Source of the DNA: an uncultured delta proteobacterium
Lineage (GTDB): Bacteria > Myxococcota > Myxococcia > Myxococcales > Myxococcaceae
Reading direction: 5' to 3'
Assembly (NCBI GenBank): GCA_963771175.1
Contig: CAVYSY010000049.1
Location: 1 to 52,166 of the forward strand
DNA length: 52,166 nucleotides
Shown here: one piece after another, positions 1,461 to 52,166 of the stretch
How the letters are laid out: every line of letters begins with the position of its first letter
Numbering within the stretch: the first letter of the stretch is position 1
The notes under the pieces: generated by a model
Database searches by the model: none
Told to the model about the DNA's origin: nothing
The model's input: only the letters and a program-made list of their open reading frames with translations
Made by a program: the position numbers and the translations under genes

Positions 1461-1512
1461 GGTGTCAGACGACTCGTAGGGGGCGAGGTGTCGGAACGAG
1501 TCCTTTGACACC
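1461..1512 (+). repeat. Complete 52-bp A-spacer-B element (reference copy)
   Basis: GGTGTCAGACGACTCGTAGGGGGCGAGGTGTCGGAACGAGTCCTTTGACACC. Confidence 0.97.
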
Positions 1513-1827
1513 TTCTCGTTGGGCACGAATGCAGGGGCCAAGCTCATGCACACGGGGTGGCGCCACAAGCTGGCTCGGGGGCATGTCGTCCGGGCGACGA
1601 AGGACACGGCCCCGACCTGCCCGGGCTCGGCCGCCATGGGGGAGAGCACCGGGCGCCACTACGATGTGGTTAGGGTGCGCCGCAACGCCTGAGCGGCCTC
1701 ATGCGCGGATCGGCGGGACCGGAATTTCCGCCGATCCGGCCTGAATCCCCGCTCTTCCCTTCCTCGGGGTCCCGACGCATCCTCTGGTCCAATCGCCCGC
1801 CTCCCGCGGGTCTCCCGAGGACACGTC

Positions 1828-2559
1828 ATGACTCACGAACACCCTGCCCCCTCCCTCCACCACATCGTGCCGGGCTTTGGCGCCGACCGCGCCGCCCACT
1901 ACGATACCCAGGCATCCGTCAACCTCGCCGGCATCCAGGCGGCGTACGAGCTCGGCGTCAGCGCGCTGACCGCCCAGCTCGACGGCCAGGACACGGCGTC
2001 GCTGCTCTTCGTGGGACTGGGCACGGGGGCGGAGTTGATGCCCTACACCCGCTTCGACGTGCCGGGCTGGCGCTTCACGGGCGTGGAGCCCTCCGAGGCC
2101 ATGCTCGCCGTCGCCCGCAAGCGCCTGGAGGCCGAGGGAATGCTCTCGCGCACGCACCTGCACGTGGGCGAGCTGCATACCCTGCCTCCCGGACCTCCGT
2201 TCGACGGCGCGCAGATGATGGGGGTACTGCACCATGTGGAGGGCGAGGAGGCCCGCCTCGAGCTGCTGCAAGAGGTGACTCGGCGGCTCAAGCCCGGAGC
2301 GCCCCTCGTTCTGGGCTGCCGCGTCGGCAAGGACCCCGAGCTGACGAACGTGGAGCTGCGGCGGTGGCGGGCGTATGGAATCCCCCCGGACGAACTGGAG
2401 CGTCGGCGCCAGCTCTTCGCGGTGATGCGGCCCATCGAGTCCGATGCCGCCCTGTTCGCGATGTTCGCCCGGACCGGGCTGGTGGCGCCGCGTCAGCTCT
2501 TCGTCTCGCTGCAGTTCAAGGTCTTCCTCGCGCGCTTCGAGCCCGGAGCCGCGGGCTGA
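1828..2559 (+). CDS. Class I SAM-dependent methyltransferase
   Basis: Motif I LLFVGLGTGAE, FTGVEPSEAML, VLHHV. Confidence 0.85.
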   Translation: MTHEHPAPSLHHIVPGFGADRAAHYDTQASVNLAGIQAAYELGVSALTAQLDGQDTASLLFVGLGTGAELMPYTRFDVPGWRFTGVEPSEAMLAVARKRLEAEGMLSRTHLHVGELHTLPPGPPFDGAQMMGVLHHVEGEEARLELLQEVTRRLKPGAPLVLGCRVGKDPELTNVELRRWRAYGIPPDELERRRQLFAVMRPIESDAALFAMFARTGLVAPRQLFVSLQFKVFLARFEPGAAG

Positions 2560-2618
2560 GACCCGGTCCAGCGTGCATGAGCACGTGGACGAGGAAGCCC
2601 GCGCGAGCGAGAGCCGGA

Positions 2619-2635
2619 ACGAGTCCTTTGACACC
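2619..2635 (+). repeat. Lone arm B
   Basis: ACGAGTCCTTTGACACC followed by TTCCC. Confidence 0.9.
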
Positions 2636-2701
2636 TTCCCGCCTTCCCGGGGTTTGACGGTGGGCGGCGGCCGCAGCATCCTCGCGCGCGAGGTGCCGCC
2701 G

Positions 2702-3418
2702 ATGTTCGAGTACAGTCCGGCCTGGCCGCACGGAGCGATCGAGGCCGCGTTCCCCGAGGTGTTCGTCGTCGTCGGGACCAACAAGACGTCCCACGCTGGC
2801 GTCGACTTCCAGACCAGCCGGACGATGACCGTGGTCCGCGAGGCCGGCGCGCTGACGCTGCTGAACACGGTCCGCCTCGACGACGACGGGCTGCGCGCGC
2901 TCGAGGGCCTCGGCGAGGTCCGCCACGTTGTCCGCCTGGGGGCGTTCCACGGCCGCGACGACCCGTTCTACTGCGACCGCTACGGCGCGACGCTGTGGGC
3001 GCTGCCGGCGGCGACCCACGCCGACGGCCGCGCGACTGGGTGCCCGCTGGCCGAGGGCGGCCCGTTCCCGCTCGCGAACGGCGCGGCGTTCGTGTTCGCG
3101 TCGGCGCGCTTTCCCGAGGCCGCGGTCCTGCTCGCCCGCGAGGGCGGCATCTTGATCACCTGCGATGCGATCCAGAACTGGACGCACGTCGACCGCTTCT
3201 TCTCGCCGGAGTGCGGGGCGATGTTCGCCGCGCAGGGGCTGATCCGCCCCGCGAACCTCCCGTCGACGTGGATCGGCGCCTGCAAGCCGCGCGCGGACGA
3301 CTTCCGCCGCCTGCTCGCGCTGCCGTTCCTCCACCTGATCAGCGCCCACGGCGAGCCGCTGCGCGACGAGGCCCACGCCCGCGTCGCCGCGAGCGTCGCT
3401 ATGGCGTTCCCGGGTTGA
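2702..3418 (+). CDS. Hypothetical protein, metallo-beta-lactamase-like/DUF4336-like
   Basis: SRTMTVVRE, VRHVVRLGAFHGRD, LITCDAIQN, LISAHG; start taken at the ATG after arm B. Confidence 0.65.
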   Translation: MFEYSPAWPHGAIEAAFPEVFVVVGTNKTSHAGVDFQTSRTMTVVREAGALTLLNTVRLDDDGLRALEGLGEVRHVVRLGAFHGRDDPFYCDRYGATLWALPAATHADGRATGCPLAEGGPFPLANGAAFVFASARFPEAAVLLAREGGILITCDAIQNWTHVDRFFSPECGAMFAAQGLIRPANLPSTWIGACKPRADDFRRLLALPFLHLISAHGEPLRDEAHARVAASVAMAFPG

Positions 3419-3429
3419 GCCACAGCCAG

Positions 3430-3551
3430 GGTGTCCACAGCCAGGGTGTCAGACGACTCGTAGGGGGCCCGAGCCAGAGCCAGGGTATCCGGAACGAGTC
3501 CTTTGACACCTCCCGAGGACACCTCCCGAGGGGAACGAGTCCTTTGACACC
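3430..3551 (+). repeat. Element locus with stutter (1 arm A, 2 arm B)
   Basis: A at 3445-3461; B at 3494-3510 and 3535-3551. Confidence 0.92.
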
Positions 3552-3639
3552 TTCCCGAGTGCCCGGCGGAGGACATTGCGAAGCCGAACGAGCGCGGACA
3601 ATAATGCCTGCGGAAGCTCCAACTGATGGGGGCGAGCAT

Positions 3640-5460: not shown

Positions 5461-5464
5461 TGTG

Positions 5465-6013
5465 ATGAGCCGCACCCACGTGATGGCACGACTGATGACC
5501 CTGGCCGGTCCGCGGGGCCCACTGGGGACGGATGAAGTGCTCGACCGGCTCCGCGACGAGCTGCTGGAGGGCGAGCCGCTCACCGCGGCCTCCGCCATTC
5601 TCGATGCGGTGGAGACACGCCCCGAGCTGCCGGCGAATGTCTCACGCGAGGACTTCGAGGGCACTGCCGCCGACCTGCTGGCGGAGCTGGGGGAGAGGCC
5701 CGGAGTCGTGGACTACCTCTGCCAGCAGCTCGAACGTCCCGGACTCCGGGGCGTGCTCCTGGATGCACTGGCGCTGCTGGCAGACCCGGCGGCGGCGCCC
5801 GCGGTGGCCGCGCTCGCGAAGGCCCAGCTTCCGCAACCCGCCTTGGAGACGCGGGAGCTGGTCAAGCTGCTCTCCGCGCTGGGCTGTGTGGGAGGCCCGG
5901 AGTCACGGGAGGCACTCGACTCTCTTCGTGCGCGTGGGGGTTGGAGTCCCGAGGTCTCCCGGGAGCTGGAGATCGCCGACGAAGCTCTGGGCAGGGTGTC
6001 AGACGACTCGTAG
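5465..6013 (+). CDS. Helical (HEAT-like) hypothetical protein, possible partner or immunity protein
   Basis: Starts 4 nt after the DUF4157 stop; Leu/Ala-rich helices; stop codon lies inside arm A. Confidence 0.65.
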   Translation: MSRTHVMARLMTLAGPRGPLGTDEVLDRLRDELLEGEPLTAASAILDAVETRPELPANVSREDFEGTAADLLAELGERPGVVDYLCQQLERPGLRGVLLDALALLADPAAAPAVAALAKAQLPQPALETRELVKLLSALGCVGGPESREALDSLRARGGWSPEVSRELEIADEALGRVSDDS

Positions 6014-6046
6014 GGGGCGAGGTGTCGGAACGAGTCCTTTGACACC
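5995..6046 (+). repeat. Complete 52-bp element
   Basis: Identical to 1461-1512. Confidence 0.97.
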
Positions 6047-6072
6047 TCCCGGGCGGACTTACCTGAAAGGGA

Positions 6073-7236: not shown

Positions 7237-7342
7237 GGTGTCAAAGGACTCGTTCCGACACCTCGCCCCCCTACGAGTCGTCCCCTACGAATCGTCTGAC
7301 ACCCTGAGCCGGAGCAGCCCGGAAGGGTGTCAGACGACTCGT
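7237..7342. repeat. Reverse-oriented element (7237-7303) back-to-back with a forward arm A (7326-7342)
   Basis: GGTGTCAAAGGACTCGT..ACGAATCGTCTGACACC, then GGTGTCAGACGACTCGT. Confidence 0.92.
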
Positions 7343-7455
7343 GTGGGTAGGCCCTCACCTGACACACCGAGCACCTCCTGGAAGTCGGGCGCGGTCCATG
7401 CGAACACTCGCAGCACGTGGCCTCCAGCAGGCGGAGAGGCCCGTGAGGAGCACGC

Positions 7456-8229
7456 ATGGACGAGAAGAAGAAGTCCGAGGTGAGCGGGGAGGGACCGGAG
7501 CGGGTGGGGCCGTACCTGATTCAGGAACAGGTGCAGCAGTCCCATGACAGCCAGGTGGAGCTCTACCTGGCCACGAACGAGACGAGCGGGGCCACGGCCC
7601 TGGTGCGGAAGCACACCGCCGAGGAGGGCGCGGCACCGGGGAAGAACTGGCGGGTGCGCCTCGGCTTCTGGGCCTCACGGGGCTACTCCGCCATGGATAT
7701 GGAGCACACCGACTGGGCCAGGGCCCAGGACCATCAGTCGGCGGAGTCGCTGCTGCTCACGTTGGAGAGTGTGCTCGAGGAAGTGCGGCACATGGCCCGC
7801 GCCTTGTCCGACACCGACAAGCCCCGCCTCCGGTGGCGCCTGGGGTTGGGCGTGGTGAGCGCCGCCACGGTGGGAACCCTGCTCTTCGCGCTGGTGCGTC
7901 TTACCTCGGTGTCCCAACCCCCGAGCGCCCCGCCAGCGCCCATGAGCCACGGGGTGCCCACGGCAGCTGAGACGTCGGACTTCCGCGCGTGGCTCGCGGA
8001 CACCACTCCCCAGGGGCAAACCGTGTTCGCCCGACCTCTCCCGAAAGAGCCCTTCAAAGGACAGAAGCGTCCCCCCTGCACGCGCTACACCGAAGTTGAG
8101 CTGGTGGGCGCCTGCTGGATGCCTCACGAGCTGAAGGCCCCGTGCCCGGAGGACCTCTTCGAGTACCAGGGCAAGTGCTACGCGCCCTCCTTCAGCGCGA
8201 AGCCGCCGCCCTCGTCGCTCGGGCAATGA
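7456..8229 (+). CDS. Myxobacterial membrane protein with Cys-rich C-terminus like that of myxobacterial Ser/Thr kinases (copy 1)
   Basis: PLPKEPFKGQKRPPC..ELVGACW..CPEDLFEYQGKCYAP; one TM helix; degenerate kinase-like start ERVGPYLIQEQV. Confidence 0.75.
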   Translation: MDEKKKSEVSGEGPERVGPYLIQEQVQQSHDSQVELYLATNETSGATALVRKHTAEEGAAPGKNWRVRLGFWASRGYSAMDMEHTDWARAQDHQSAESLLLTLESVLEEVRHMARALSDTDKPRLRWRLGLGVVSAATVGTLLFALVRLTSVSQPPSAPPAPMSHGVPTAAETSDFRAWLADTTPQGQTVFARPLPKEPFKGQKRPPCTRYTEVELVGACWMPHELKAPCPEDLFEYQGKCYAPSFSAKPPPSSLGQ

Positions 8230-8320
8230 GTGGTGCGGGCGCTCGCGGGCTTCACTTACAGACGTCCGTACGTGAGGCCACACTTCCCGTGGAAGGTGCA
8301 GGAAGGGTGTCTGCAGGAAG

Positions 8321-8372
8321 GGTGTCAGACGATTCGTAGGAGACGAGGTATCAGAACGAGTCCTTTGACACC
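8321..8372 (+). repeat. Complete element, variant allele
   Basis: GGTGTCAGACGATTCGTAGGAGACGAGGTATCAGAACGAGTCCTTTGACACC. Confidence 0.95.
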
Positions 8373-8400
8373 ATTTCCGGCCGATGTTGCCGCCCAGATA

Positions 8401-9349: not shown

Positions 9350-9402
9350 GGTGTCAGGCGATTCGTAGGGGGGCGAGGTGTCGGAACGAGTCCTTTGACA
9401 CC
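9350..9402 (+). repeat. Complete element, variant
   Basis: GGTGTCAGGCGATTCGT..ACGAGTCCTTTGACACC followed by a TGACACCTTCCCT stutter. Confidence 0.93.
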
Positions 9403-17197: not shown

Positions 17198-17566
17198 GGT
17201 GTCAGACCCGGCCAAGGTGTCAGACGACTCGTAAGGGGCCCCCCCGGCCAGGGTGTCCGGCCAAGGTGTCAGACGACTCGTAAGGGGCCTCGGCCAGGGT
17301 GTCCCGGCCTCCGCCGGGGTGTCAGACGACTCGTAGGGGGCCCGGCCCGGCCGGCCCTGGCCAGGGTGTCCGGCCAGGGGGTCAGACGACTCGTACGGGG
17401 CTCGGCCAGGGTGTCAGACCGGCCAGACCGGACCGGCCAGACCGGCAGGGTGTCCGGCAGGGTGTCAGACGACTCGTAGGGGGCCGAGGTGTCCGGCCAG
17501 GGTGTCAGACGACTCGTAGGGGGCGAGGTGTCGGAACGAGTCCTTTGACACCTTCTCCGGACACCT
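17198..17566 (+). repeat. Stuttered cluster: about 6 arm A copies ending in a complete element (17501-17552)
   Basis: A at 17216, 17265, 17318, ~17378, 17461 and 17501, with CCGGCCAGGGTGTC fragments between. Confidence 0.95.
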
Positions 17567-17611: not shown

Positions 17612-18430
17612 GTGATCATGCAGGGCATGTCACAAGCCACGCCAATCCAGGCCCGTGGCCAGGCCACTCCGCTGCGTGGCCCCATCAGGCTGCTGCTGAG
17701 CCATGGCGAGGCGCTCAGCGAGCAGGAACTGCGGGAGATGTGGTGCTTCCGGATCGGCATCCTTCCGCTCAAGCCTCATGTGCCACCGGAGGAGGACTTC
17801 GCCCGCTTCTGCCGCTTGTGCCGTCGATGCACGAGCGTGGTGCGGCTGTGGAGTGCGGATGGGGTGCTGTGCGGAATCACCGTCATGTCCTTCCATGACG
17901 GCACCTTCGAGGGACAGCACTACAGGCTGCTCCTGCCAGAGTACGGTATCGTAGACGCGCGGCTGCGGGGCTCGCCGGTGGTGCCCTGGTTCTGTCTGCG
18001 CATCGTGCTGCACGCCCTGTGGCACATGCCGCCTCGGCAGCGCGGCGCCCGCATCTTCCTGGGGGGCATCGGCTACCCCACCAGTGCGTTGATGATCGAG
18101 CGCTTCTTGCCGCCGCTCTGGCTGTATGGCGATACAGAGGCCCCACCCCTCGCCACCCACCTGCTCGAGTGGATGCGCGAGCACCTGGCCGGTGAGCGCT
18201 GGGATCCGCGGGCGCGCCACGTCTCCATGCCTACGCTCCCCCGGACTCCCTCTGAGCGCTGGCTCGCGCGCCAGCAGGCCCGGCCCCTCTACCAGCGCTA
18301 TATGCGGCGCTGCCCGGACTGGACACAGGGCCGTGCCCTGCCACTGCTGGCTGCCATGACCTGGCGCATGCCATTGCAGGTGGCCCTGCACCTGCTGCGG
18401 CGGCGGTGGCGCGCACCGCAGTCCCCCTGA
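17612..18430 (+). CDS. Hypothetical protein (possibly GNAT-like fold)
   Basis: 272-aa ORF filling the inter-element segment; EYGIVDARLRG. Confidence 0.6.
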   Translation: MIMQGMSQATPIQARGQATPLRGPIRLLLSHGEALSEQELREMWCFRIGILPLKPHVPPEEDFARFCRLCRRCTSVVRLWSADGVLCGITVMSFHDGTFEGQHYRLLLPEYGIVDARLRGSPVVPWFCLRIVLHALWHMPPRQRGARIFLGGIGYPTSALMIERFLPPLWLYGDTEAPPLATHLLEWMREHLAGERWDPRARHVSMPTLPRTPSERWLARQQARPLYQRYMRRCPDWTQGRALPLLAAMTWRMPLQVALHLLRRRWRAPQSP

Positions 18431-18457: not shown

Positions 18458-18509
18458 GGTGTCAGACGACTCGTAGGGGGCGAGGTGTCGGAACGAGTCC
18501 TTTGACACC
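18458..18509 (+). repeat. Complete element
   Basis: Consensus copy followed by GGACACCTTCCCGGG stutter to about 18545. Confidence 0.97.
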
Positions 18510-20254: not shown

Positions 20255-20446
20255 GGTGTCCAGCCCAGCCAGGGTGTCAGACGACTCGTAGGGGGCCAGC
20301 CAGGGTGTCAGACGATTTGTAGGGGCGAGGTGTCGGAACGAGTCCTTTGACACCTTCCCGGAACATCCCGCCCCCGAGCTGAGCGCTCCAGCCAGGGGGT
20401 CGGACGACGAGAGGGGGCGAGGTGTCGAAAGGCACGACCTCGACAC
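20255..20446 (+). repeat. Element locus: arm A (20273), complete element (20304-20354) and degenerate element (20396-20446)
   Basis: Direct motif matches; degenerate copy reads GGGGTCGGACGACGAGAGGGGGCGAGGTGTCGAA. Confidence 0.9.
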
Positions 20447-20476: not shown

Positions 20477-21416
20477 CTACATGCAAATCAGACGCACCCA
20501 GAGCTTCCAGCTCGGCGCGTACGTGCTGTGGTTCTTCGCGTTGGTGAGCCAGGTGCTCCCATCGTATCCGGACTCGAAGTGCAGCGCCGCGCCGTCGAGG
20601 ATGCCACTGGAGCTGTCGAGCACGCCCCACCCCGCTCCGAGCGCCTTCTTTCCGGTGGAGCAGGCCGCCTGCACCTGCTTCCACGACGTGCCGTCCACGG
20701 GACTCTCCGTGGTGACGACCTCGTAGCCCGAGAGGCTGCTCTCTGGCGCGCACAAGAGCTGCCCCTTGAGCTTCCAGCTCGATGCGAAGCTGGACGTGTT
20801 GCGAGCATTCACGAGCCAGCCCGAGCCGTCGTAGCTCGGTCCGAAGTAGAGCGCCTCCCCCTCGAGGATGATGTTGGTGCTGTCGAGCACGCTCCACCCC
20901 GCCCCGAGCGCCTTCTTTCCCGCCGGGCAGCTCATCTGCAATTGCTTCCCCGCCACCGAGTCGACCGCGGTCTCGAAGGGCACCACTTCGTAGCCGGTGA
21001 GCGCGCTGGCGCACAGCACCCGGACTTGCAGCTTCCAGGTCGAAGCATAGGTGCTCAGGTTCCTGGCATTCACCATCCACTCGGTGCCATCCCAGCTCGG
21101 CGCGGAATACGTGGCGCTCCCCTCGAGCATGCCACCGGTGCTGTCGAGCACGCTCCACCCTCCGCTGAGCGCCTTCCTTCCCGTCGGGCATGCCACGCTG
21201 AGCTGTTTGCTCGAGTTGCTGTCGACCTGGGTCTCGCTCGTGACGACCTCGTAGCCCGAGAGCAGGCTCGACTGGACCCCCCGAGCTCGCTCGTGTCGGA
21301 CTCGGCGGCGCCAGGGCCGCAGCCGCTCGACGAGAGCCCCACTGCCACGGTCAGGGCCATCCAAAAGCGGTCCCTGACCCACGACGTACCCGAAAGCCGC
21401 TGGTCATGTTCTTCAT
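20477..21416 (-). CDS. Lipoprotein with three ~87-aa Cys-containing repeats (copy 1, frameshifted near 5' end)
   Basis: GYEVV..C.xG(K/R)KALxxGWxVLDS..WKL..C three times; near-identical to 22401-23341. Confidence 0.75.
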
Positions 21417-21520
21417 TGCTTTATTCTTGCGTGTATAATATTATAAATAATAAAATAATAATAGAAGTATGGATAAGAATGAAATGATGATAGTTGAGTT
21501 AGAAAGGAAAAGAATTTTTT

Positions 21521-22340
21521 GTGAGGGGCGGAGGCGGACTTCGGCGTCGTCACCTCCTTCCTCTTCAAGCTGCAGCCGGTGAACAACATCATCGGCGGCA
21601 TGACCCTGTGGCCTCTGGACCAGGCCGCGGAGGTGATGCGCTGGTATCGCGAATTCCTGCCCCAGGCGCCGGAGGACCTCAACGGCTTCCTCGCCTTCCT
21701 GACGGTGCCGCCGACGGCGCCCTTCCCCGAGTCCCTCCAACTGGAGAAGGTCTGCGGCATCGTGTGGTGCTACACGGGGCCGCCGGAGCGGGCGGACGAG
21801 ACGTTCAAGCCCATCCGGGAGTTCGGCCGGCCGGCGCTCGTCGGCATCCATGCGATGCCCTACCCCGCCCTGCAGAGCCTGTTCGATGCGTTCTACCCGA
21901 AGGGCCTGCAGTGGTACTGGCGGGCCGACTTCGTCCGCGAGCTGGGGGACGAGGCCATCGCGCGACACATCGAGTACGCCGAGCGGATGCCCACGCCGCT
22001 CTCCAGCATGCACCTCTACCCCGTCGATGGAGCGGTGCACCGGGTGGGGGTGAAGGACACGGCCTTCGCCTACCGTGACGTCCTGTGGTCCGAGGTCATC
22101 GTCGGGGTGGATGCCTCGCCAGAGAACGCGGAGCGAATCACCACCTGGACGAAGGAGTACTGGGACGCGGTGCACCCCTACTCAGCGGGGGGCGCCTACG
22201 TGAACTTCATGATGCAGGAGGGGACCGAGCGGGTGCGGGCCACGTACCGGGAGAACTACGACCGGCTGGAGGAGGTGAAGGGCCGGTATGATCCGACGAA
22301 CCTCTTCCACGTGAACCAGAACATCCCGCCCCCGAGCTGA
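21521..22340 (+). pseudogene. C-terminal half of an FAD-linked oxidase (BBE domain), paralog of 24991-26409
   Basis: Begins at VRGGG..FGVVTSF; ends YDPTNLFHVNQNIPPPS; N-terminal half replaced by an AT-rich stretch. Confidence 0.85.
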
Positions 22341-22353
22341 GCGCTCCAGCCAG

Positions 22354-22388
22354 GGGGTCGGACGACGAGAGGGGGCGAGGTGTCGAAA
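22354..22388 (+). repeat. Degenerate element
   Basis: Same degenerate sequence as 20396. Confidence 0.7.
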
Positions 22389-30489: not shown

Positions 30490-30900
30490 GGTGTCGCTCA
30501 GGGTGTCAGACGACTCGTAGGGGCCGCTCCGCTCAGGGTGTCAGACGACTCGTAGGGGGGCTCCGCTGCTCAGGGTGTCAGACGACTCGTAGGGGGCGAG
30601 GTGTTGGAACGAGTCCTTTGACACCTTCCCGGACACCTTCCCGGGACACCTTCCCGGACACCTTCCCGGAGCCGGAACGAGTCCTTTGACACCTTCCCGG
30701 AGGAACGAGTCCTTTGACACCTTCCCGGACACCTTCCCGGAGAACGAGTCCTTTGACACCTTCCCGGGACACCTTCCGGAGTCCTTTGACACCTTCCGGA
30801 GGACACCTTCCCGGAGGGGAACGAGTCCTTTGACACCTTCCCGCCGGAGCCTTCCGGGGGGAACGACTCCTTTGACACCTTCTCGGGACACCTTCCCGGG
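30490..30900 (+). repeat. Stuttered cluster: 3 arm A and about 7 arm B
   Basis: A at 30502, 30537, 30574; B at 30609, 30677, 30705, 30744, ~30779, 30821, 30863. Confidence 0.95.
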
Positions 30901-33077: not shown

Positions 33078-33080
33078 GGC

Positions 33081-33854
33081 CTACCCGCTGCCTTCCCGGA
33101 CGGCCAGCACGAGCGTCTTGTCATCATCCGTGCGCTCGTTGACCGCGGGCGAGTCCAGGAACGCGCGCAGGGGCTCCCTCAGCTCCTCCGGGTGCGCGGC
33201 CCCGCGCAGCGTGGCGAACAGGGGCTCGAAGAAGGGACGGTGCACCGAGCGCGAGGCGAAGTGGAGCGCCATCATCTGGAGCCCGTCGGTGAGCAGGGCC
33301 ACCTCGTCCACCGGCTCCCCGCACGTCACCTCCAGCACCTGCTCCATGTCCCGCGAGGTGAGGAACCAGGTGCTGTTGGCGTACTGGCCCACCTGGGGCC
33401 AGAAGACGGGCACGTAGTCCTCTCCCCGGCGCACGACGATGACCCCATCCCCCACCTGGGCGAACACGGACCCGTGCGCCCCCACCACCGCCGTCAGCAG
33501 CGTGCAGGACAGCTCGTGCGGCGACACCTCGCGCCTCGCGGCCTCCTCCTCCAGCGCCTGGCGCACCTGCCGGTACCAGCCGCGAATCACCTCCGGGTTC
33601 CTCAGTCCCTCCGCGCCCTCGCGCGCGAGCGCCTCGCGGGCCAGCTCGACGAAGCGCCGGCACGCCAGCGCCGAGCCCTCCTGGCTCAGCCCCGCACTGC
33701 CCGCACCGTCGGCGCACGCCACCACCAGAAAGCACTCCTGCCCCGGACTCGTGACCGTGCCCGCGCAGCTGTCCTGGCACGGGGTGGCCGAGCGCCGGTG
33801 CGAAGTCCCCTCCAGGGACTGCTGGAGCAGCCTCCACATGTGGGCGTTCTCCAA
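33081..33854 (-). CDS. YegK-like PP2C-family phosphatase (TerY-P triad)
   Basis: GTSH..PCQD, ACADGAGSA, QVGDG, LLTDG, TDDDKTL. Confidence 0.9.
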   Translation of the reverse strand: MENAHMWRLLQQSLEGTSHRRSATPCQDSCAGTVTSPGQECFLVVACADGAGSAGLSQEGSALACRRFVELAREALAREGAEGLRNPEVIRGWYRQVRQALEEEAARREVSPHELSCTLLTAVVGAHGSVFAQVGDGVIVVRRGEDYVPVFWPQVGQYANSTWFLTSRDMEQVLEVTCGEPVDEVALLTDGLQMMALHFASRSVHRPFFEPLFATLRGAAHPEELREPLRAFLDSPAVNERTDDDKTLVLAVREGSG

Positions 33855-33857
33855 CTC

Positions 33858-34528
33858 CTAGACGGTGGCCCAGCCGCCAGGGGCCGCCGGGTTCTCCAGC
33901 CGCACCTCGTCCGTCGTTTGCGAGCGGGAGACGGCCTTCTGAGAGTTGGACAACCACTGGAACAGGTCTCGGAAGCGCAGGCCGTCCAGCTTGAGCGGCT
34001 CCCGCACGGAGATTTGCTTGAGCACGTCGAAGTTGGCTCCCTCCACCCCCACGGCGAAGAAGGAGAAGGCCTTGGCGGCCTCGCCCTGGCGCACGCGCTG
34101 GGCGGCGGTCAGCCACACGTCCGTGGGGCCCCCATCCGTGATGAGGAAGATCCACGGCCGGTAGAAGAGGATTCCGTTCTGCCGGTAGAGGCTCTTGCGC
34201 TCCGTCAGCATGTCCGTGGCCCGGAGGATGGCCTCGCCCATGGGGGTGTTCCCCTCGGCCACCAGCGAGGGGGGAAGAAGGACTCGGTGGTGGAGAAGTC
34301 GTGCAGGGTCCGCACCTGGCCCCCGAAGGTGACCACGGCCACCTCCACTCGCTTGGAGGCGAGGCTGTCGGCGGTCAGCTCGTCGCGGTACTGGCGCAGC
34401 CCTGTGTTGAGTGCCTCGAGGGGAGCCCCGTTCATGGAGCTGGAGGTGTCCAACAGCAGCACGCACGGGCAGCGCGGCTCAGGGTTCTCTGCGAACGACA
34501 AGGCTCCAAACGGTACTTGCTCGGCCAC
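33858..34528 (-). CDS. YegL/TerY-like vWA protein (frameshift in a G-run near 34270)
   Basis: [48 protein letters not shown]. Confidence 0.9.
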
Positions 34529-34598: not shown

Positions 34599-34870
34599 GG
34601 TGTCAGACGACTGGCCAGGGTGTCAGACGACTCGTAGAGACGACTCCAGCCAGGGTGTCAGACGACTCGTAGAGCAGCCAGGGTGTCAGACGACTCGTAG
34701 AGACGACTCGTGGAGCGCAGCCAGCAGCCAGGGTGTCAGACGACTCGTAGAGCCGAGGTGGCGGAACGAGTCCTTTGACACCTTCCCTGACACCTTCCCT
34801 GAGGGGAACGAGTCCTTTGACACCTTCCCTGGACACCTTCCCAGGGAACGAGTCCTTTGACACCTTCCCT
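34599..34870 (+). repeat. Stuttered cluster: about 5 arm A and 3 arm B
   Basis: A at 34599 (partial), 34619, 34654, 34682, 34732; B at 34766, 34808, 34848. Confidence 0.95.
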
Positions 34871-36628: not shown

Positions 36629-36644
36629 GGTGTCAAAGGACTCG
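36629..36644 (-). repeat. Arm B, inverted, upstream of the HUH transposase
   Basis: GGTGTCAAAGGACTCG on the + strand. Confidence 0.9.
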
Positions 36645-36774
36645 AAACGCGGGACTCAATCCAGAACGAGACTCGGCGTGGACGGGTGAGCCTACCGGCC
36701 TCCAAGTCTTTCTGAGGACTTGCGGCTGGCCCGAGGGGTGCATTGACCTCGCGGACCGAACGGAGGGGGAGGGG

Positions 36775-37706
36775 ATGGGCTGGCCGCTGAGGATGTTCCA
36801 AGAGGAGGGCTATTACTTCGTCACGTCCAGGTGCTTCCAGGGACGGCTGCTGCTGCGTCCCAGCTCGGAGGTGAACGAGGTGGTGGGTGGAGTGCTGGCG
36901 CGAGCCGTACAGCAGAGCGCCGGCACCATACGGCTGCACGCCTTCACCTTCGCCTCCAACCACTTCCACCTGCTGGTGTGGGCGAGGGGGGCGGCACTCG
37001 CGAGCTTCATGCAGTACCTGCGCGCCAACCTGTCCAAGAAGGTGGGGCGGCTGGTGGGCTGGAGTGGAGGCTTCTGGGAGAGGCGCTACTCGGCGGAGCC
37101 AGTGCTGGACGACGCGGCGCTGGTAGGCCGGCTGCGCTACGTGCTCGCCCATGGGGTGAAGGAGGGCCTGGTGGAGAGGAGCGCCGAATGGCCGGGCCTC
37201 ACGTGCCTGCCGCAACTGCTGGGGCCGGCACGGCGACTGTTCCAGTGGTTCAACTGGACGAAGCGCTGGAGCAAGAGGGGGGCGAGGACATGGGTGGTGC
37301 GCAGGGGCGCTTCGCGCAGGAGTGGGCCGTGCCGGTGGAGTTGGAGGTGGAGCCACTGCCGTGCTGGAAAGGACTGCGAGAGGAGGAGCGGCAGCGCGCG
37401 GTGCGGAGCCTGCTGGAGGATGTGGAAGCCGAGGCCAAGACCCGGGGCACGCCTGTCTTGGGGGCACGGGCCGTGCGGGCACAGCACCCGCATACCCGGC
37501 CCGAGCGACTCAAGCGCAGCCCACGTCCACTGGGGCATGCCTCCACGCGCCAGGCGTTGAAGGAGTTGCGCGAGCAGTACCGTGCCTACGTCGCGGCGTT
37601 CCGCGCTGCGGCGGCTCGGTGGCTGCAAGGGGATTTTTCAGCGTGCTTTCCTCTCTACTCCTTCCCCCCGCGTGTCGTGCCGGGTCGCGTCGCCCGAATT
37701 CTTTGA
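36775..37706 (+). CDS. HUH/Y1 tyrosine transposase, RAYT (TnpA-REP)-like, about 310 aa with one G-run frameshift near 37280
   Basis: YYFVTSRC, LHAFTFASNHFHLLV (HUH), GGFWERRY, LRYVLAHGVKEGLV..EWPG (Tyr helix; typical NPVxAGLV is altered). Confidence 0.88.
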
Positions 37707-37856
37707 CATCCTGACGGGGCGAGTCCTTTGACACCTTCCCGGAGCCCGAATTCTTTGACATCCTGACGGGGCGAGTCCTTTGACACCTTCCCGGTGGCTA
37801 ACCCCGAGGGAACGAGTCCTTTGACACCTTCCCGGCCCCGGTGTCAGACGACTCGT
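37692..37856 (+). repeat. Three arm B copies plus one arm A downstream of the transposase
   Basis: B at 37719, 37771, 37812; A at 37840; a unit including the stop codon is duplicated with 52-bp period. Confidence 0.93.
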
Positions 37857-42304: not shown

Positions 42305-43391
42305 ATGAAGGAAAACCCGGCGGAACCAGGCCCGCAGAACCTTCAGGCGTTCGTGAGCGAGTACTACGGCAAGCTGCTTGCCTCGAGCGCCGATCTGAAA
42401 ACGAATGCCTGCTGCGCGAGTGGGGCGCCGCCCACGTGGCTCGCCTCCCGGCTGGCGAACATCCACCCGGACGTGGCGAACCGCTTCTACGGGTTGCGGG
42501 TTCCCCATCCCGCACGGACTTCGTGGCGCCACGGTGGTGGACCTCGGGTGCGGTACCGGCCGCGACGTCTACGTCCTCGCGCAGCTCGTCGGTCCGGATG
42601 GGCACGTCCATGGAATCGACATGACCGAGGAGCAGCTGGCCCTGGCGCGCGACACCGCGAGCTGGCACGCCGACAAGTTCCGCTTCCCTCGCCCCAACAC
42701 GAGCTTCCATCGGGGGTACATCGAAGACCTGCGAAGCCTCGGCCTCGGTGACGCGAGCGTTGATGTCGTCGTCTCGAACTGCGTCGTCAACCTCAGCCCT
42801 CGCAAGGAGCTCGTGCTCGCCGAGGTGTTCCGGGTGCTGAAGCCCGGCGGGGAGCTGTACATCAGCGACGTCTTCGCGGACCGGCGACTTCCTCCGGAGG
42901 TCTCGAGCGACCCCGTGCTCTACGCGGAGTGTCTCGGAGGCGCGCTCTACCAGGCCGACTTCGTCAGCCTCGCCAGGCGCGTGGGCTTCACCGACCCGAG
43001 GGTCGTCAGCAGCTCGCCGATCACGATTCACAACGAGGAGATCTCCCACAAGGCCGGCGCGGCGCGTTTCACGTCGGTGACCTATCGGCTCTTCAAGCTG
43101 GAAGGGCTCGATGACCAGTGCGAGGACTACGGCCAGTCCGCCGTGTATCGTGGCGGTATCGAAGGCGCTGAGTCGCTGTTCTGGCTCGACGACCACCACG
43201 CCTTCGAGCGGGCTCGACCCGAGCGCGTGTGCGCGAACACCGCGGCCATGCTGTCGAGCACTCGCTTCGCTCCTTGGTTCGAGGTCCTGGGCTCACGCAC
43301 CACGCACTTCGGCGTGTACCCGTGTGCTCCGACCCTGGCCGCCGCGCAGTACCAGAGCACGGTTCGGGAGGGCGGCGGGGCCTGCTGCTGA
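42305..43391 (+). CDS. arsM: Arsenite methyltransferase-like protein (frameshift near 42495)
   Basis: YYGK..DLKTNACC, FYGCGFPIP, VDLGCGTGRD, SNCVVNL, ECLGGALY, CEDYGQ, terminal CC. Confidence 0.82.
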
Positions 43392-43672: not shown

Positions 43673-43698
43673 GGTGTCGGAACGAGTTCTTTGACACC
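43673..43698 (+). repeat. Spacer end plus arm B variant
   Basis: GGTGTCGGAACGAGTTCTTTGACACC. Confidence 0.88.
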
Positions 43699-43778: not shown

Positions 43779-44789
43779 ATGACGCGTGCATCCGTAGCTA
43801 CCACTCGCAGCTTGCCGAGCTTCTCCGCGGCTCCCTCATTTGAGCAAGCCCTGGCTGACCATGGCGCCGCGCCGCTTGTCCGTGGGCGCGTCCGAACACT
43901 TCAGGTCAATGTCGGCAAGCTCTGCAACATGGCGTGCCATCACTGCCATGTCGAGGCCGGGCCCAAGCGAACCGAGAGCATGGGGCGCGACGTCGCCGAA
44001 CGTCTCATCGAGCTGCTCTCCAGAAATCCCGACGTCGAGGTCGTCGACTTCACGGGTGGCGCCCCCGAGCTCAACCCGCACTTCCGGTGGCTCGTCGAGG
44101 AGGCTCGACGGCTTGGACGGAGAGTCATCGATTGATGCAACTTGACGGTGCTCTTCGAGCCAGGCCAGGCGGAGCTTCCTGACTTCTTGGCCAGGCACGA
44201 CGTCGAGATTGTCGCCAGCCTTCCCTGCTACAGTCCCGAGAACGTCGAAAAGCAACGGGGGCGCGGCGCGTTCGACAAGAGCATCCAGGCCCTGCTCCTG
44301 CTGAACAAGCTCGGCTACGGGCGGGTGGGCTCGCGCCTCAAATTGAGTCTCGTTTACAACCCCGTCGGGCCGTCGCTGCCCCCCGCCCAGGGAAAACTCG
44401 AGGCGAAGTACAAGGAAGAGCTGTCGCGGCTCTTCGGCATCGAGTTTCACGACCTGCTCACCATCACGAACATGCCGATCAAGAGATTCGCGCACGCCCT
44501 CGAACGCGCGAACGCGCTCGAGTCCTACATGGGCTTGCTCGCGAATCACTTCAACGTGAGCACGGTACCGGAGCTGATGTGCCGGTCCCTCGTGAGCGTG
44601 AGCTGGGATGGTCAGCTCTACGACTGCGACTTCAACCAGATGATGGACCTGCCTCCTGGCGCGGGAGCGCGTTCGATCTGGGACATCGACTCGTTCGCGG
44701 AGCTCGAGCGCGCCCGAATCGCGACCGACGGCCACTGCTTCGGCTGCACCGCGGGGGCGGGCTCGAGCTGCTCGGGGGCGTTGCGTTGA
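43779..44789 (+). CDS. arsS: Arsenosugar-biosynthesis radical SAM protein, with in-frame TGA at 44133
   Basis: LQVNVGKLCNMACHHCHV, FTGGAPELNP, YDCDFNQM, HCFGCTAGAGSSCSG. Confidence 0.82.
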
Positions 44790-45088: not shown

Positions 45089-45105
45089 ACGAGTTCTTTG
45101 ACACC
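45089..45105 (+). repeat. Lone arm B variant
   Basis: ACGAGTTCTTTGACACC, the same variant as 43682. Confidence 0.88.
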
Positions 45106-47643: not shown

Positions 47644-48902
47644 ATGACCACTCTACGCTTCCCTCGTTTTGAACGAACTCTCGGAGTTTCGCTGAATGAA
47701 CTCAAATTTGAGCATCTCGTTCAGCTGGCTGCTCGATTTACCTCCGACCCTGTGTTGGAGGACTTTGATCTGGAGTTCAAAGAGCGAGTCTACGACGAGA
47801 ATGAAAAGAATCGTCGGGAGCTTCCCGCAGACATAGCTGCGATGGCTAATAGCCAAGGCGGCATCATACTCCTCGGCATCAAGGCGGAGAATGGCGCCGC
47901 AAAAGAAGCCGTTGAGTTGCCGCTCACCGAAGCAGAGGAACTCAGAATGACAAATATGATCCTGTCGGCCATCTTTCCACGGCCGAGGTTTGAGTTCCTC
48001 CGCGTTGTCAAAGCAACAGACCCTACAAAGGGCTGCTTTGCCATACTAGTCCCCAAGAGTCCTGACGCACCACATGCCGTGAGGCTTGATGAAAATTATC
48101 GCTACTATCGACGAGACAGCGCAGCAAAACGCATCATGTGGGAGTCCGAGATCGCTGACGCATATCGCAGCCGCTTTCATGAGTCCGACAATCAAGTCCA
48201 GCGACTCCAGAAAGTAGCAAGCGATGGGGCCAGCCAACTTAGCCGGACCGGAATGGGATGGCTTTCTATGTCACTTGTCCCCAACAACCCCGGCGGGATG
48301 AATTTGACCAATCAGAGCCTACAGCGGCTGGAGAGTTGGATCAGAACCTACACTCAAGACAGCGTGACCCGCATTCCCGCCTTTTACGGTCGAACGGCAC
48401 GCCAGCGTATCGGAGCCCGCCGGGTAAGTTCAGCGCGGGGCGCAACAATACTGATCATCTTAATGAGTACTCCTACGCTGAACTTCACACGGACGGCAGT
48501 GGCTTTTATTCGTACTGGCTTCCTCTAAATCCCGACGGCAAAAACATCGAACCTCAAGCCCTCAGAGTCCAAGACTCAAGTGTCACAGAACGAGCCCTCT
48601 GCGGATTGCGCCTTCTTGCGGATCATGCGATCAGCAATGCTGGCTGCCATGGGGACGCACTTGTATCTGCCAGCATTGTTCTGCCCAAAGACATGAGTAA
48701 TATCATTCCTATTGAATTCAGCTCGAATGACTTTTCGCCCTCGCAACCGCTTGACCCCATTCCTTGCCCTGATGAGTCAAGTGCAACCGTCAACCTGGAT
48801 GAAATAGTCGGCGCTTGGCGTGGAACGCTGCTGGCCACTAGACTAGTGCTTGCTGACTTCATGCAGGCGTGCGGAATTCCCCGATGCCGCCAGATTTCTT
48901 GA
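47644..48902 (+). CDS. AlbA_2/Schlafen-domain protein (frameshift near 48430)
   Basis: EDFDLEFKE..DIAAMANSQGGIILLGI..PKSPDAPHAV..YYRRD; markedly lower GC. Confidence 0.8.
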
Positions 48903-48949: not shown

Positions 48950-49910
48950 AATGGACTCAGCGCGCGAGGCTAACTTTCATCAACCGCCGAGACTAAGAAC
49001 AAAGGCGTGCATCGCACTTCTGCTCTTTCTCTCAGCCTGCGCTACGACACCGCCCACCCCAAGAGAGCCAGCGGCCCGGGACCCGAGGCTCGCCAACCTC
49101 CAGCGAGCGGCGAAGCTGCCCTGGACGGACGGGGGGCAGTGTGCCGTCCGCGAAGCTTCTGAGCCCTGGCCCGTGCTGGCGGAGCGGTGCTTTTATGCCC
49201 TCGACCATGACCGGGTTCGGTTTCGGGACATCACGGGCAGATGCGCCGTCGCCTCCGCAGGTGCGGCAGTGGGCGTCGGACTCTGTGTCTTGGCGGCACC
49301 GGAGATCATCGTGGGAGCAGTGATCGTCGCGGGCGTGGTGGTGGTGGGATTCGCCATCAAAGAGGCCCTGGATGCGTATGCGCTGGATATGGGCCACCCC
49401 GAGGTAAGGCCCGTGCCAGAAACGCGGCCCGTGCCTGAAACAGCGCCCGCCCCGCAGAAACCCTCGCCGAAAAAAAGGCCCAAGCCGGAGCCCAAAGGGC
49501 CGGATTTCCCTCCCGTGGAGCCACCCGAACTCTCGGAGCGAGATCGTCACAGGTGCGAGCCCGTCCCAGTGCCGATCACCGGGCGAGAATAAGCTGCATA
49601 ACAAGTGCGCCGATCAGTTTCCGCCCAACCGTTATCCCCGGAATGGATGTGCTCGTGGGCGGTGTGAGCTTCGATGCACTGCAAGTCGGCGCGCGTGTGC
49701 TGTGGGAGATCAAGACCCATCGATTTGATACGTACCCTGACTTTATTCGACGAGAAATGGAGATTGATAGATCAAATGGAAAAATTGCAGCAGGAGCGTG
49801 CGGCGGCATGTGGATATGCTTAGGTCGTTGGGGTGAGCACCCAAGCGCACAAAGCCGCGCTGCTCGACGAGATCAACCCTCAATATCGTTGTCAGGGGTG
49901 CAAACGATGA
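48950..49910 (+). CDS. DUF6310-like lipoprotein toxin with REase-like C-terminus (multiple frameshifts, start uncertain)
   Basis: ACIALLLFLSAC; LQRAAKLPWTDGG; CEPVPVP; FDALQVGARVLWEIKT. Confidence 0.7.
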
Positions 49911-50664
49911 CCAAGCGTAGAGACCCTCATCTTCATCGTCTACGCGCCTGCTCTCGTGGGCAACGACCGCCGCGCGCTTAGCGTCGTCATGGAATGGAAA
50001 GGGCGCTCCCCGGCTTGCGCCTGGAGTGGAGGATTTCCGAGAGGGGAGCTGATCCCGCGTTGCCGCAGCGCGACGCGTGGCTCGTAGAAAGCATTGAGGA
50101 CGGGGGATTCCCGCTCCTGTGCAATGGCGACGAGAGCTACCCCGTGACGGTTTCGGGAATGGGAAGATCGGGACTCTTCAGCCCAGGCGGTCAGGACCAG
50201 TTTGAAGTGCATGCAAAACTGCCACTGGACGAGCCCGTGATCGCGGCAGCGGCGGATGTGCTTGAAGGCATGGCGGAGGGGGCTCGCGCGTTTTGGGGGC
50301 GTGCGACGCCGGACGGCGTGGCGGCGGAGATGGCGTAGCAGGTGCGCCATTCGCTGGACGGAGCCGCATGCTCCGCCCCGGGGGCTGCCCGCGCTCAAGC
50401 TCTCCGACGCACATCCGCTCGCCAGAGATTCCGCATCACCTCGGGTGGCTGAACTACTGGTCCGCCGCTGCCGCAGAAGCCATCGGCTTTCCGGACCCGG
50501 CCCGCGACGCGGAGCTGCTGTCACGCTCACGGCGTACCGCGACGGGCGGGTGGGTCGTGCAGCTCACCGATGCGCCGCTCGACCTGGACAACCCGGCCCA
50601 CCTGGACGCGCTCAAACGGGCCTACGAGCGCTTCCCGGAGATTGGCGGGCGCTCCGCCCCTTGA
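49907..50664 (+). CDS. DUF5953-like immunity protein (frameshifted)
   Basis: IVYAPALVGND..MERALPGLRLEW..LGWLNYWSAAAA..LTDAPLDLDNPAHLDALKRAYERFPEIGGR. Confidence 0.75.
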
Positions 50665-50692
50665 GGCTCGGCACGGCTCGCGCTGGCCGTGC

Positions 50693-51170
50693 TCAGGGCC
50701 CCTTCGCTTTGCCCTCGGGGAAGGTGACGTTCCCAAGGGTGACGGTGCGCGGCCCGGTTGCCTCCCACAGCTTGAGGGTACAGGGGCAGCCGAGCTGCGC
50801 GCGCTCCCCCTCGATGCCCACCACGACGGCACCGGCACCATTCGCGGGGATGGGTGCCTGTTGCCACCGGGCAAGCTCCACCTCTTCCCCCGCCTTGTCC
50901 ACCAGCGCCGCCCCCGCGAGCGTCCAGGGCTCGGCACCGGGGTTCTTGAGGCTCAGTCGCGCAGCCACGCTCACCGGGCGGGTCTTGTCGCTGAGCGTGT
51001 AGCTGGAGCTCGTGGTCGCTTCCAACCCGAGCGCGTTTCCCGGCTGCTCCCTCACCGACCCGAAAAGCGGCTTGCGACGCGAGGGTCCCGGCCCGCTCCA
51101 GCCACGCGGCCCCCATGAGCCCGCCCGGCTCCTGACGCTCGGCCAGAAGCCGCGCTTTGTCCTCCTGGCA
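50693..51170 (-). pseudogene. C-terminal fragment of a DUF2381-like protein
   Basis: LKNPGAEPWTLAGAALV..GCPCTLKLWEA..VTLGNVTFP; N-terminus missing at the repeat. Confidence 0.65.
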
Positions 51171-51178
51171 CCGGAAAT

Positions 51179-51230
51179 GGTGTCAAAGGACTCGTTCTGA
51201 TACCTCGTCTCCTACGAATCGTCTGACACC
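51179..51230 (-). repeat. Complete element, same variant allele as 8321-8372, inverted
   Basis: Reverse complement equals 8321-8372. Confidence 0.96.
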
Positions 51231-51259
51231 CTTCCTGGGACACCTTCCCCGAGCACCAC

Positions 51260-52035
51260 TCATTGCCCGAGCGACGAGGGCGGCGGCTTCGCGCTGAAGG
51301 AGGGCGCGTAGCACTCCCCCGGTGTTCGAAGAGGTCCTCCGGGCACGGGGCCTTGAGCTTGTGAGGCATCCAGCAGGCGCCCACCAAGCCCAACTTCGGT
51401 GTAGCGCGTGCAGGGGGGACGCTTCTGTCCTTTGAAGGGCTCTTTCGGGAGAGGTCGGGCGAACACGGTTTGCCCCTGGGGAGTGGTGTCCGCGAGCCAC
51501 GCGCGGAAGTCCGACGTCTCAGCTGCCGTGGGCACCCCGTGGCTCATGGGCGCTGGCGGGGGCGCTCGGGGGTTGGGACACCGAGGGAAGACGCACCAGC
51601 GCGAAAGAGCAGGGTTCCCACCGTGGCGGCGCTCACCACGCCCAACCCCAGGCGCCACCGGAGGCGGGGCTTGTCGGTGTCGGACAAGGCGCGGGCCATG
51701 TGCCGCACTTCCTCGAGCACATTCTCCAATGTGAGCAGCAGCGACTCCGCCGACTGATGGTCCTGGCCCTGGCCCAGTTCGGTGTGCTCCATATCCATGG
51801 CGGAGTAGCCCCGTGAGGCCCAGAAGCCGAGGCGCACCCGCCAGTTCTTCCCCGGTGCCGCGGCCTCCTCGGCGGTGTGCTTCCGCACCAGGGCCGTGGC
51901 CCCGCTCGTCTCGTTCGTGGCCAGGTAGAGCTCCACCTGGCTGTCATGGGACTGCTGCACCTGTTCCTGAATCAGGTACGGCCCCACCCGCTCCGGGCCC
52001 CCTCCCCGCTCACCTCGGACTTCTTCTTCGTCCAT
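51260..52035 (-). CDS. Copy 2 of the 7456-8229 gene (frameshifted)
   Basis: Near-identical sequence on the opposite strand. Confidence 0.8.
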
Positions 52036-52150
52036 GCGTGCTCCTCACGGGCCTCTCTCCGCCTGCTGGAGGCCACGTGCTGCGGGTGTTCGCATGGACC
52101 GCGCCCGACCTCCAGGAGGTGCTCGGTGTGTCAGGTGAGGGCCTACCCAC

Positions 52151-52166
52151 ACGAGTCGTCTGACAC
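52151..52166 (-). repeat. Arm A, inverted, at the window edge
   Basis: ACGAGTCGTCTGACAC. Confidence 0.9.

Follow-up and report, generated by a model that had tools for sequence, protein, structure and literature searches.

A probable REP-type palindromic element tied to a RAYT-like HUH enzyme forms one-directional islands in Archangiaceae

A stretch of 52,166 nt from contig CAVYSY010000049.1 of an uncultured delta proteobacterium (assembly GCA_963771175.1, positions 1–52,166; the whole stretch is referred to here as the window) is punctuated by many copies of a short hairpin-like repeat and carries a gene with HUH and tyrosine motifs. We conclude that the repeat is probably an element of about 67 nt of the repetitive extragenic palindromic (REP) type, belonging to a family of HUH/Y1 enzymes that resemble REP-associated tyrosine transposases (RAYTs), that the window has probably seen a recent local burst of this element on one DNA strand with element ends serving as breakpoints, and that the array is probably not the integron-like machine for gene capture that an earlier reading of the letters alone (the sequence-only reading) had proposed.

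The repeat is built from two arms, arm A (GGTGTCAGACGACTCGT) and arm B (ACGAGTCCTTTGACACC), and a pattern scan of the window allowing up to three mismatches recovered 59 matches to arm A and 57 to arm B, where shuffled sequences predict 0.25 and 0.17, respectively. The two patterns cross-match because arm A differs from the reverse complement of arm B at just two fixed positions; assigning each site to its better pattern leaves 60 arm copies, comprising 26 A and 29 B on the plus strand and two A and three B on the minus strand, with 55 of the 60 pointing in the same direction. Twelve complete A-spacer-B units are present (11 on the plus strand, one on the minus strand), nine of them with a spacer of 18 nt and ten sharing the loop AGGGGGCGAGGTGTCGGA, and a profile search adds two decayed copies (20389–20430 and 22347–22388) and an arm clipped by the window end. 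When 62 complete units from the window and related loci were oriented and compared, a conserved flank of 7–8 nt ending in (C)CA(G/A) was seen to the left of arm A and 8 conserved nucleotides, TTCCC(C)GG, to the right of arm B, beyond which conservation ends. Because conservation stops 7–8 nt outside the arms, the element measures about 67 nt; it is an imperfect palindrome in which, by inspection, the 17-nt arms of the two inverted halves pair with two fixed mismatches in the top strand, G·T and C·C. Scans of the window found no Rfam family and no tRNA.

The HUH gene, which starts at 36775 and which the sequence-only reading described as near-intact, retains both its HUH motif (SNHFHLLV) and its Tyr motif (RYVLAHGVKEG) but carries one disabling frameshift, where a G run near 37282 has lost 1 nt relative to two intact homologues; the missing nucleotide may be an assembly error. 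The intact homologues, each of 310 aa, are from Archangium lansingense (locus L013, 7987–8916) and A. minus (L064), and the H63xH65 and Y122 residues are invariant in 22 of 22 aligned homologues. An AlphaFold2 model of the intact protein built from 22 homologues (mean predicted local distance difference test score, pLDDT, 82.9) has as its best fold match in the PDB 4er8_A, the E. coli RAYT in complex with a REP hairpin (E 2.5e-4, template modelling score, TM, 0.65), followed by the TnpA transposases of ISDra2, IS200, and IS608; a sequence search of the PDB with the same protein returned nothing relevant, and the fold search alone succeeded. The family has 809 homologues at E ≤ 1e-3, many of them named RayT by the Joint Genome Institute (JGI), and more distant homologues (~55% identical) carry the Pfam family Y1_Tnp (PF01797). 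Each Archangium or Cystobacter genome holds several diverged paralogue clusters, fragments, and pseudogenes, for example three in A. lansingense and five in Cystobacter fuscus Cbf 10, and judged by these homology searches the family is widespread and multi-copy in Archangiaceae.

The repeat and the gene are physically associated. A reversed arm B lies ~130 nt 5′ of the ATG and is invariant in all five aligned loci (the window, L013, L064, L058, and L039, representing three genomes plus the window), and a B-like arm, CGAATTCTTTGACAYC, spans the stop codon in all four loci that could be aligned at the 3′ end. A gene bracketed in this way by inverted arm copies is classic for RAYTs. The suggestion that the hairpin is linked to a RAYT-like HUH enzyme is thus borne out, with a fold that matches the E. 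coli RAYT and an arm that flanks the gene in five loci, and for these two reasons we regard it as a REP/RAYT system of Archangiaceae, a system of known kind. What is new is the lineage, and what is unusual is the distribution; our literature search found no report joining RAYT or REP with myxobacteria. In the A. lansingense locus at 5.2 Mb (L058, 12254–13579), an insertion of ~1.3 kb splits the RAYT-like gene, and seven solo B arms lie around it.

The arms of the window group into 21 clusters, about one element per 2.5 kb, and 18 of these run purely from A to B on the plus strand, with one mixed (7237–7342) and two on the minus strand (36629; 51179–51230); the earlier figure of about 25 loci, about 21 of them co-oriented, was a fair estimate. 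The features of the window are as follows.

1461–1512, plus strand: complete element (A, 18 nt, B), arm scan
2619–2635, plus strand: solo arm B, arm scan and profile search
3445–3551, plus strand: cluster A B B, arm scan
5995–6046, plus strand: complete element between convergent genes; the stop of the open reading frame (ORF) at 5462–6013 (6011–6013) lies inside arm A
7237–7342, both strands: mixed cluster, B and A on the minus strand, then A on the plus strand, arm scan
7327–8380, plus strand: left copy of a ~1-kb inverted duplication with a 257-aa gene, 97–100% identical to 51171–52166
8321–8372, plus strand: complete element with arm A variant GATTCGT; its right end, 8380, is a border of the 1-kb inverted duplication
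9350–9402, plus strand: complete element in a divergent intergenic space
17216–17552, plus strand: array of six left halves (A) and one right half (B) in a divergent intergenic space
18458–18509, plus strand: complete element, 27 nt past a stop codon
20273–20354, plus strand: cluster A A B, its right end (…GACACCTTCCCGG) fused directly to the final 21 nt of a BBE-type gene
20389–20430, plus strand: decayed element copy, nhmmer E 1.3e-3
22347–22388, plus strand: decayed element copy 3′ of a BBE gene fragment, matching in position the intact element after the full-length gene
23715–23731, plus strand: solo arm B, arm scan
24832–24883, plus strand: complete element, arm scan
26440–26491, plus strand: complete element, 30 nt past the stop of the BBE oxidase gene
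26912–26928, plus strand: solo arm B, arm scan
30502–30879, plus strand: array of three A and seven B occupying the entire gap between convergent genes
34599–34864, plus strand: array of five A and three B in a divergent intergenic space
36629–36645, minus strand: reversed arm B, conserved 5′ flank of the RAYT-like gene, invariant in five loci
36775–37706, plus strand: RAYT-like HUH/Y1 transposase gene with one frameshift near 37282; stop codon within a B-like arm
37719–37856, plus strand: cluster B B B A, 3′ flank of the RAYT-like gene
43682–43698, plus strand: solo arm B with one mismatch, arm scan
45089–45105, plus strand: solo arm B with one mismatch; its counterpart adjoins a homologous gene in locus L015
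51171–52166, minus strand: right copy of the inverted duplication, its gene frameshifted, running past the window end
51179–51230, minus strand: complete element, reversed, part of the inverted duplicate of 7327–8380

Four clusters, those at 17216, 30502, 34599, and 37719, are arrays. The additional A copies consist of the loop start plus a locus-specific linker (gctcag at 30502, ggccag at 17216) and the additional B copies of the loop end plus TTCCCGG; since the extra copies carry their flanks, the arrays are tandem copies of half-elements including flank. Nested insertion was considered as an origin of these A…B arrays and ruled out, as each additional A bears the locus-specific outer linker.

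A second island of the same kind was found by an exact arm-B scan of a genome collection, which returned at least 120 loci, so that every genome-wide count given here is a lower bound; the matches listed do not include the window. Of the listed loci, 71 belong to records of Archangium, Cystobacter, Vitiosangium, or Pyxidicoccus, and the other 49 are from unrelated phyla with a lone arm each, a number close to the ~70 chance 17-mers estimated for such a collection. A. lansingense has at least 25 exact arms, and 18 of those listed fall within 1,487,207–1,583,600, which is 0.70% of the contig, all on the minus strand (binomial 8e-34). Genes lie on both strands of this island, whose cargo includes an AraC regulator, an isochorismatase, a dehydrogenase, a DEAD helicase, a terpene synthase, AHH toxin and immunity genes, and genes with no assigned role; tblastx detects no cargo shared between it and the window except the elements and the RAYT gene. 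Each island contains a degraded RAYT copy, and 17 of 20 A. lansingense units share a loop, AGGAGGCAATATGCCTGT, distinct from the loop type common to 10 of the 12 window units. The clustering and the shared orientation are real in the window and recur in A. lansingense, and it is the shared loop types, the dense one-strand islands, and the degraded RAYT gene in both that point to a recent burst.

Among the matches listed, the element is mostly present as scattered single copies in A. minus, in A. gephyra, and in two genomes of C. fuscus, and relatives hold 6–62 arms each in the DNA examined. Comparison of 53 window proteins with the 71 myxobacterial loci by tblastn gave 11 matches for nine proteins; three genes in order are kept only in L015, in a stretch that has no element. 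Wider synteny was likewise not detected in four locus pairs, where tblastx shows single-gene homology only, and no orthologous element loci common to the two C. fuscus genomes were found among the loci compared. C. fuscus Cbf 10 has seven loci at 0.47–5.1 Mb on the plus strand and one at 9.76 Mb on the minus strand, and the other genomes are mixed; local GC skew agrees with element orientation in 12 of 20 blocks, which gives no replication-strand signal.

Two further repeats were seen in these genomes. A 3.8-kb stretch is 96.5% identical between C. fuscus and A. lansingense (L023 15142–18945 and L040 11943–15746), far above the identity of the neighbouring genes, and on this comparison is probably a recently transferred mobile element. 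Another repeat, of up to 779 nt and 92% identical between A. minus and A. lansingense (L064 13931–14809; in the A. lansingense island, L075 2555–2745, 10716–10973, 14313–14417, and 17230–18007), encodes the C-terminal part of what we take, from its HFH motif, to be an IS91-type transposase, and two of its copies start 7–9 nt from an element arm.

An alternative to a local burst is that the element transposes genome-wide and that copies survive mainly in a decaying, pseudogene-rich accessory region where insertion costs nothing. The window does contain many broken genes, pieces of a transposase that is IS91-like by its motifs lie in the A. lansingense island, and one crude gene caller gives coding fractions of 0.59 for the window and 0.61 for that island; with the same caller, however, 22 other element-bearing loci span 0.40–0.88, and the islands are thus not outliers. 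The arms beside the decayed genes are mostly exact (23 exact copies of arm B in the window), which points to youth, and strict co-orientation over 44–50 kb would require an additional cause. We consider passive accumulation of this kind unlikely.

Gene calls, made with a caller based on G+C content at third codon positions (GC3) together with Pfam and NCBIfam matches, place the elements between genes: 17 of the 21 clusters overlap no called gene, and the remaining four touch just a gene start or stop. Read from the gene map, about five clusters are in convergent and four in divergent contexts, with the others in tandem, and nine begin 13–31 nt past a stop codon or overlap one. The close spacing of stops and repeats reported earlier is accurate: the repeat follows positions 3418, 20250, and 30481 at distances of 26, 22, and 20 nt, respectively, and precedes positions 26951 and 30909 by 22 and 29 nt. 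Element-bounded segments range from 420 to 7813 bp, one being a six-gene stretch, and have genes on both strands; element orientation goes with the DNA strand and not with the way the adjacent genes run.

A further alternative is that the hairpins are retained for a host function, ending or stabilizing transcripts or binding a nucleoid protein, as has been proposed for some REPs and bacterial interspersed mosaic elements (BIMEs). Consistent with this are the nine clusters at or just past stops, the five clusters that fill convergent gaps, and a solo arm B that stands beside a homologous gene in both the window and L015 even though the gene DNA is only ~79% identical. Such a role is nevertheless hard to reconcile with hairpins that lack a following T-run and fold no better than shuffles, with an orientation that ignores the neighbouring genes, with four clusters in divergent promoter regions, with the lack of any Rfam match, and with arrays of up to seven half-elements, and we judge it very unlikely.

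Element ends coincide with several rearrangement junctions. The segment 7327–8380 is an inverted duplicate of 51171–52166 with 97–100% identity, and the homology includes the element and ends 8 nt past arm B (8380/51171); the other border lies beyond the window end. These inverted 1-kb repeats bracket 43 kb holding most of the array, and they could invert the whole block. Elements also lie just past the stop of a BBE oxidase gene (24943–26409) and of its C-terminal fragment (21538–22340), the one at the fragment being decayed. The junction at 20357/20358 fuses an intact element, by its right end, directly to the final 21 nt of this BBE gene; the paralogues read AACCAG|AACATCC at this point and have no element upstream of the break. 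It resembles the outcome of an insertion 3′ of CCAG and a later deletion between two co-oriented elements. In A. minus (L053), a 1-kb duplicate runs from the right-end flank of one element to the right-end flank of the next. The idea that element ends act as breakpoints is thus partly supported: two window junctions and one in A. minus lie exactly at the right end of the element. In the 654 kb formed by the window and loci, duplicated segments (≥200 bp, ≥88% identity) have 119 ends, and 16 of these fall no more than 25 nt outside an arm, against 2.3 ± 1.45 expected; none of 2,000 random placements reaches 16. The other breakpoint of the BBE fragment has no element.

The proposal of the sequence-only reading can be restated as HUH-driven segment mobilization, in which the RAYT-like enzyme would cut at the ends of two co-oriented elements and move or copy the intervening stretch, collecting accessory genes into a co-oriented array. 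Dense co-oriented arrays surround unrelated cargo in two genomes, and the two cargo genes tested are, from homology searches, rare accessory genes: the gene at 17612–18427 has just eight homologues at E ≤ 1e-10, with no named isolate among their sources, and the ApbE gene has three near-identical fragments, then nothing above 60% identity, its few named matches being metagenome-assembled genomes of Chloroflexi. As these two genes are accessory and not core, the condition that the sequence-only reading named as a refutation, elements evenly spread in conserved core synteny, does not count against its idea. That both are rare or foreign would fit segment mobilization, as would the A. minus duplicate bounded by right-end flanks of successive elements, the element right end that forms one border of the gene-carrying inverted duplicate in the window, the enrichment of duplicated-segment ends at arms, and recurring gene-plus-element units (BBE in the window; a 121-aa gene three times and a 425-aa gene twice in the A. 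lansingense island). However, genes occur on both strands and four clusters occupy divergent promoter regions, the BBE duplicate is a gene fragment with an element-free breakpoint, and no segment of the window is found with elements at both ends in two contexts. Cross-genome homology near elements comes down to single genes of multi-copy paralogue families, relatives mostly carry scattered single elements (among the matches listed), and homology that ends at elements can also come from ectopic recombination between 52-nt repeats or from element decay within larger duplicates. Mobilization of segments by this route therefore seems to us improbable.

The comparison with integrons fails on their defining features. 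No integrase, resolvase, or DDE family was found among the 194 window ORFs of at least 110 aa searched against Pfam at E ≤ 1e-3, the sequence-only reading having likewise seen no tyrosine or serine integrase, and no attI site or attC core is present; the sites lie in convergent, tandem, and divergent contexts, the segments they bound span 0.4–7.8 kb, and relatives carry scattered singles among the matches listed. We therefore reject the integron-like interpretation.

We favour instead a REP-type element moved by the RAYT-like enzyme, which would bind the hairpin on single-stranded DNA, cut a few nucleotides outside the arms, and insert copies at new positions between genes, 3′ of (C)CAG, leaving no target duplication. 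The enzyme may act preferentially near its own gene, which would yield a recent local burst on one strand, with the local gene copy decaying afterwards; half-element arrays could then form by local tandem duplication including flank, and element ends would become breakpoints for duplications and inversions of neighbouring genes.

Several points weigh against this account. The RAYT-like protein matches NCBIfam REP_Tyr_transpos (NF047646) over profile positions 4–144 of 146 with E values of 4e-14 to 1.7e-13, but its scores of 50.7–52.7 bits are below the cut-off of 80, and its PF01797 score of 20.6 is below the cut-off of 23. Its C-terminal half, ~170 aa, has no family or explanation, and the look-alikes of that half are Myxococcota clusters only, with scores below 0.9 that make them leads only. 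The protein is multi-copy, unlike a single-copy, vertically inherited RAYT. The hairpin of a unit, predicted at -13.7 kcal/mol (z -0.74), is no more stable than shuffles and ordinary for G+C-rich DNA. The enrichment of duplicate ends at arms is inflated by intergenic bias and by element turnover inside larger duplicates, and one of the 16 ends is a window-end artefact. The target (C)CAG rests on a single filled/empty comparison (AACCAG|AACATCC) plus the flank consensus, and the flanks of 207 clusters gave no filled/empty pair beyond BBE. The sparse occurrence outside the islands is a lower-bound picture, the source genome being known here from the window alone. Finally, in the best-studied host, Pseudomonas fluorescens SBW25, REP doublets forming hairpins (REPINs) are random in extragenic space, from which the kilobase-scale clustering here differs (PMC3116915), and strain-unique DNA is repeat-poor, the 'repeat deserts' making up 40% of coding capacity with 93.7% of their coding sequences strain-unique (PMC2718517).

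REP/REPIN-RAYT systems, such as E. coli TnpA_REP with its REP and BIME sequences and the Pseudomonas REPINs, are among the closest known. The likeness includes an HUH/Y1 enzyme with 4er8 as best fold match, a gene flanked by inverted repeat copies, and short imperfect palindromes in intergenic DNA, often just past stops; in SBW25, too, REPINs cluster beside RAYT genes and form tandem arrays including flanks (PMC3116915). The differences are that the protein here is 310 aa with a C-terminal half seen so far only in Myxococcota, that it falls below the curated cut-offs, and that each genome has several diverged paralogues and pseudogenes, although RAYT groups vary in copy number and Pseudomonas Group 3 is multi-copy (PMC5581495). 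The arrays here are left halves followed by right halves, and the elements form co-oriented islands of 50–100 kb in accessory DNA, unlike the random repeats of SBW25 that are absent from strain-unique DNA (PMC3116915 and PMC2718517).

Among other close systems, the IS200/IS605 family and its hairpin miniature elements (MITEs), with IS608 and ISDra2, have the same catalytic fold and hairpin ends, and at the one filled/empty site here there is no terminal duplication and the apparent insertion is 3′ of a short motif. As with IS608, insertions aimed at the lagging-strand template would be expected to share one orientation. Here, inverted copies of one arm bracket the gene rather than distinct left-end and right-end hairpins, and no TnpB partner was found among the Pfam-scanned window ORFs. 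Integrons and clusters of attC sites lacking integrases (CALINs) also have co-oriented hairpin sites that punctuate unrelated accessory genes, often just past a stop, and in Vibrio superintegrons the repeats are sequence-homogeneous within an array, as they are here; they differ in having an IntI tyrosine recombinase (there is no Phage_integrase match among the 194 window ORFs) and in site structure, the element consensus having neither GTT nor an RYYYAAC…GTTRRRY core by inspection, and here genes lie on both strands, segments are multi-gene, and some sites are in divergent promoter regions. IS91/ISCR and Helitron-type elements, which are HUH elements that can pick up flanking genes, likewise combine an HUH enzyme with duplicated host DNA whose limits coincide with an element end. 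Their enzymes are larger, act by rolling circle, and have two catalytic tyrosines, whereas the fold here is of the small Y1 type; the fragments beside elements in the A. lansingense island, IS91-like by their motifs, are a separate repeat family.

Work on REP/RAYT systems has been confined almost entirely to Proteobacteria, whose repeats lie at random and keep out of recently acquired DNA, and the Archangiaceae family is the opposite, with dense one-directional islands in accessory DNA, beside dead transposase copies, and with duplications ending at element ends. If the clustering reflects local enzyme action, these genomes would offer a natural system for studying RAYT target choice. If element-bounded segments move, this would be a new route of accessory gene assembly, a single-strand HUH-based counterpart of the integron that accepts both gene orientations. 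If neither holds, the practical lesson is that a REP burst can leave co-oriented hairpin arrays that lack an integrase, and that such arrays should not pass for integrons.

The proposal that the cargo of the window is rich in defence genes was not upheld, since PADLOC matches only six of 53 ORFs, all through generic domains (kinase, methyltransferase, radical SAM), and finds zero complete systems. Conflict-type families are represented by eCIS_core, DUF6310/DUF5953, a TIGR02268 fragment, Schlafen AlbA_2, and PP2C plus vWA, and the broken genes include fragments of BBE, sigma factor, histidine kinase, and TIGR02268 genes as well as a frameshifted DUF5953 gene and a frameshifted copy of the gene at 7456–8229. 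This last gene, with relatives near arms in L013 and L027, was considered as a second element-associated enzyme and set aside, as its product, a Cys-rich membrane protein, belongs to a myxobacterial paralogue type and matches no family.

Among other features of the window, two adjoining tandem arrays at 3–479, with units of 80 and 84 nt in about three copies each, are unrelated to the element. A near-identical gene pair on the minus strand (20477–21364 and 22401–23546), each member with three internal units of ~265 nt, has no family match, and between this duplicated repeat-protein gene and the BBE fragment lie ~110 nt of near-pure A+T (21410–21520) in a genome of 68% G+C. An operon-like trio on the minus strand (30909–34466), encoding a vWA protein, a PP2C phosphatase, and a 695-aa protein with no family, sits between the two largest arrays. 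The segment 46500–50000 is low in G+C (57–58%), contains a Schlafen AlbA_2 gene (47644–48525) and no elements, and looks like a recent foreign insertion; a DUF6310 gene and the frameshifted DUF5953 gene follow at 49553–50664, just beyond it. Lastly, an arsenite methyltransferase gene (42534–43391) is upstream of a plus-strand radical SAM gene (43779–44789) that matches the ArsS '(seleno)protein' family TIGR04167 on either side of an in-frame TGA (44133–44135); this TGA probably encodes selenocysteine and does not break the gene.

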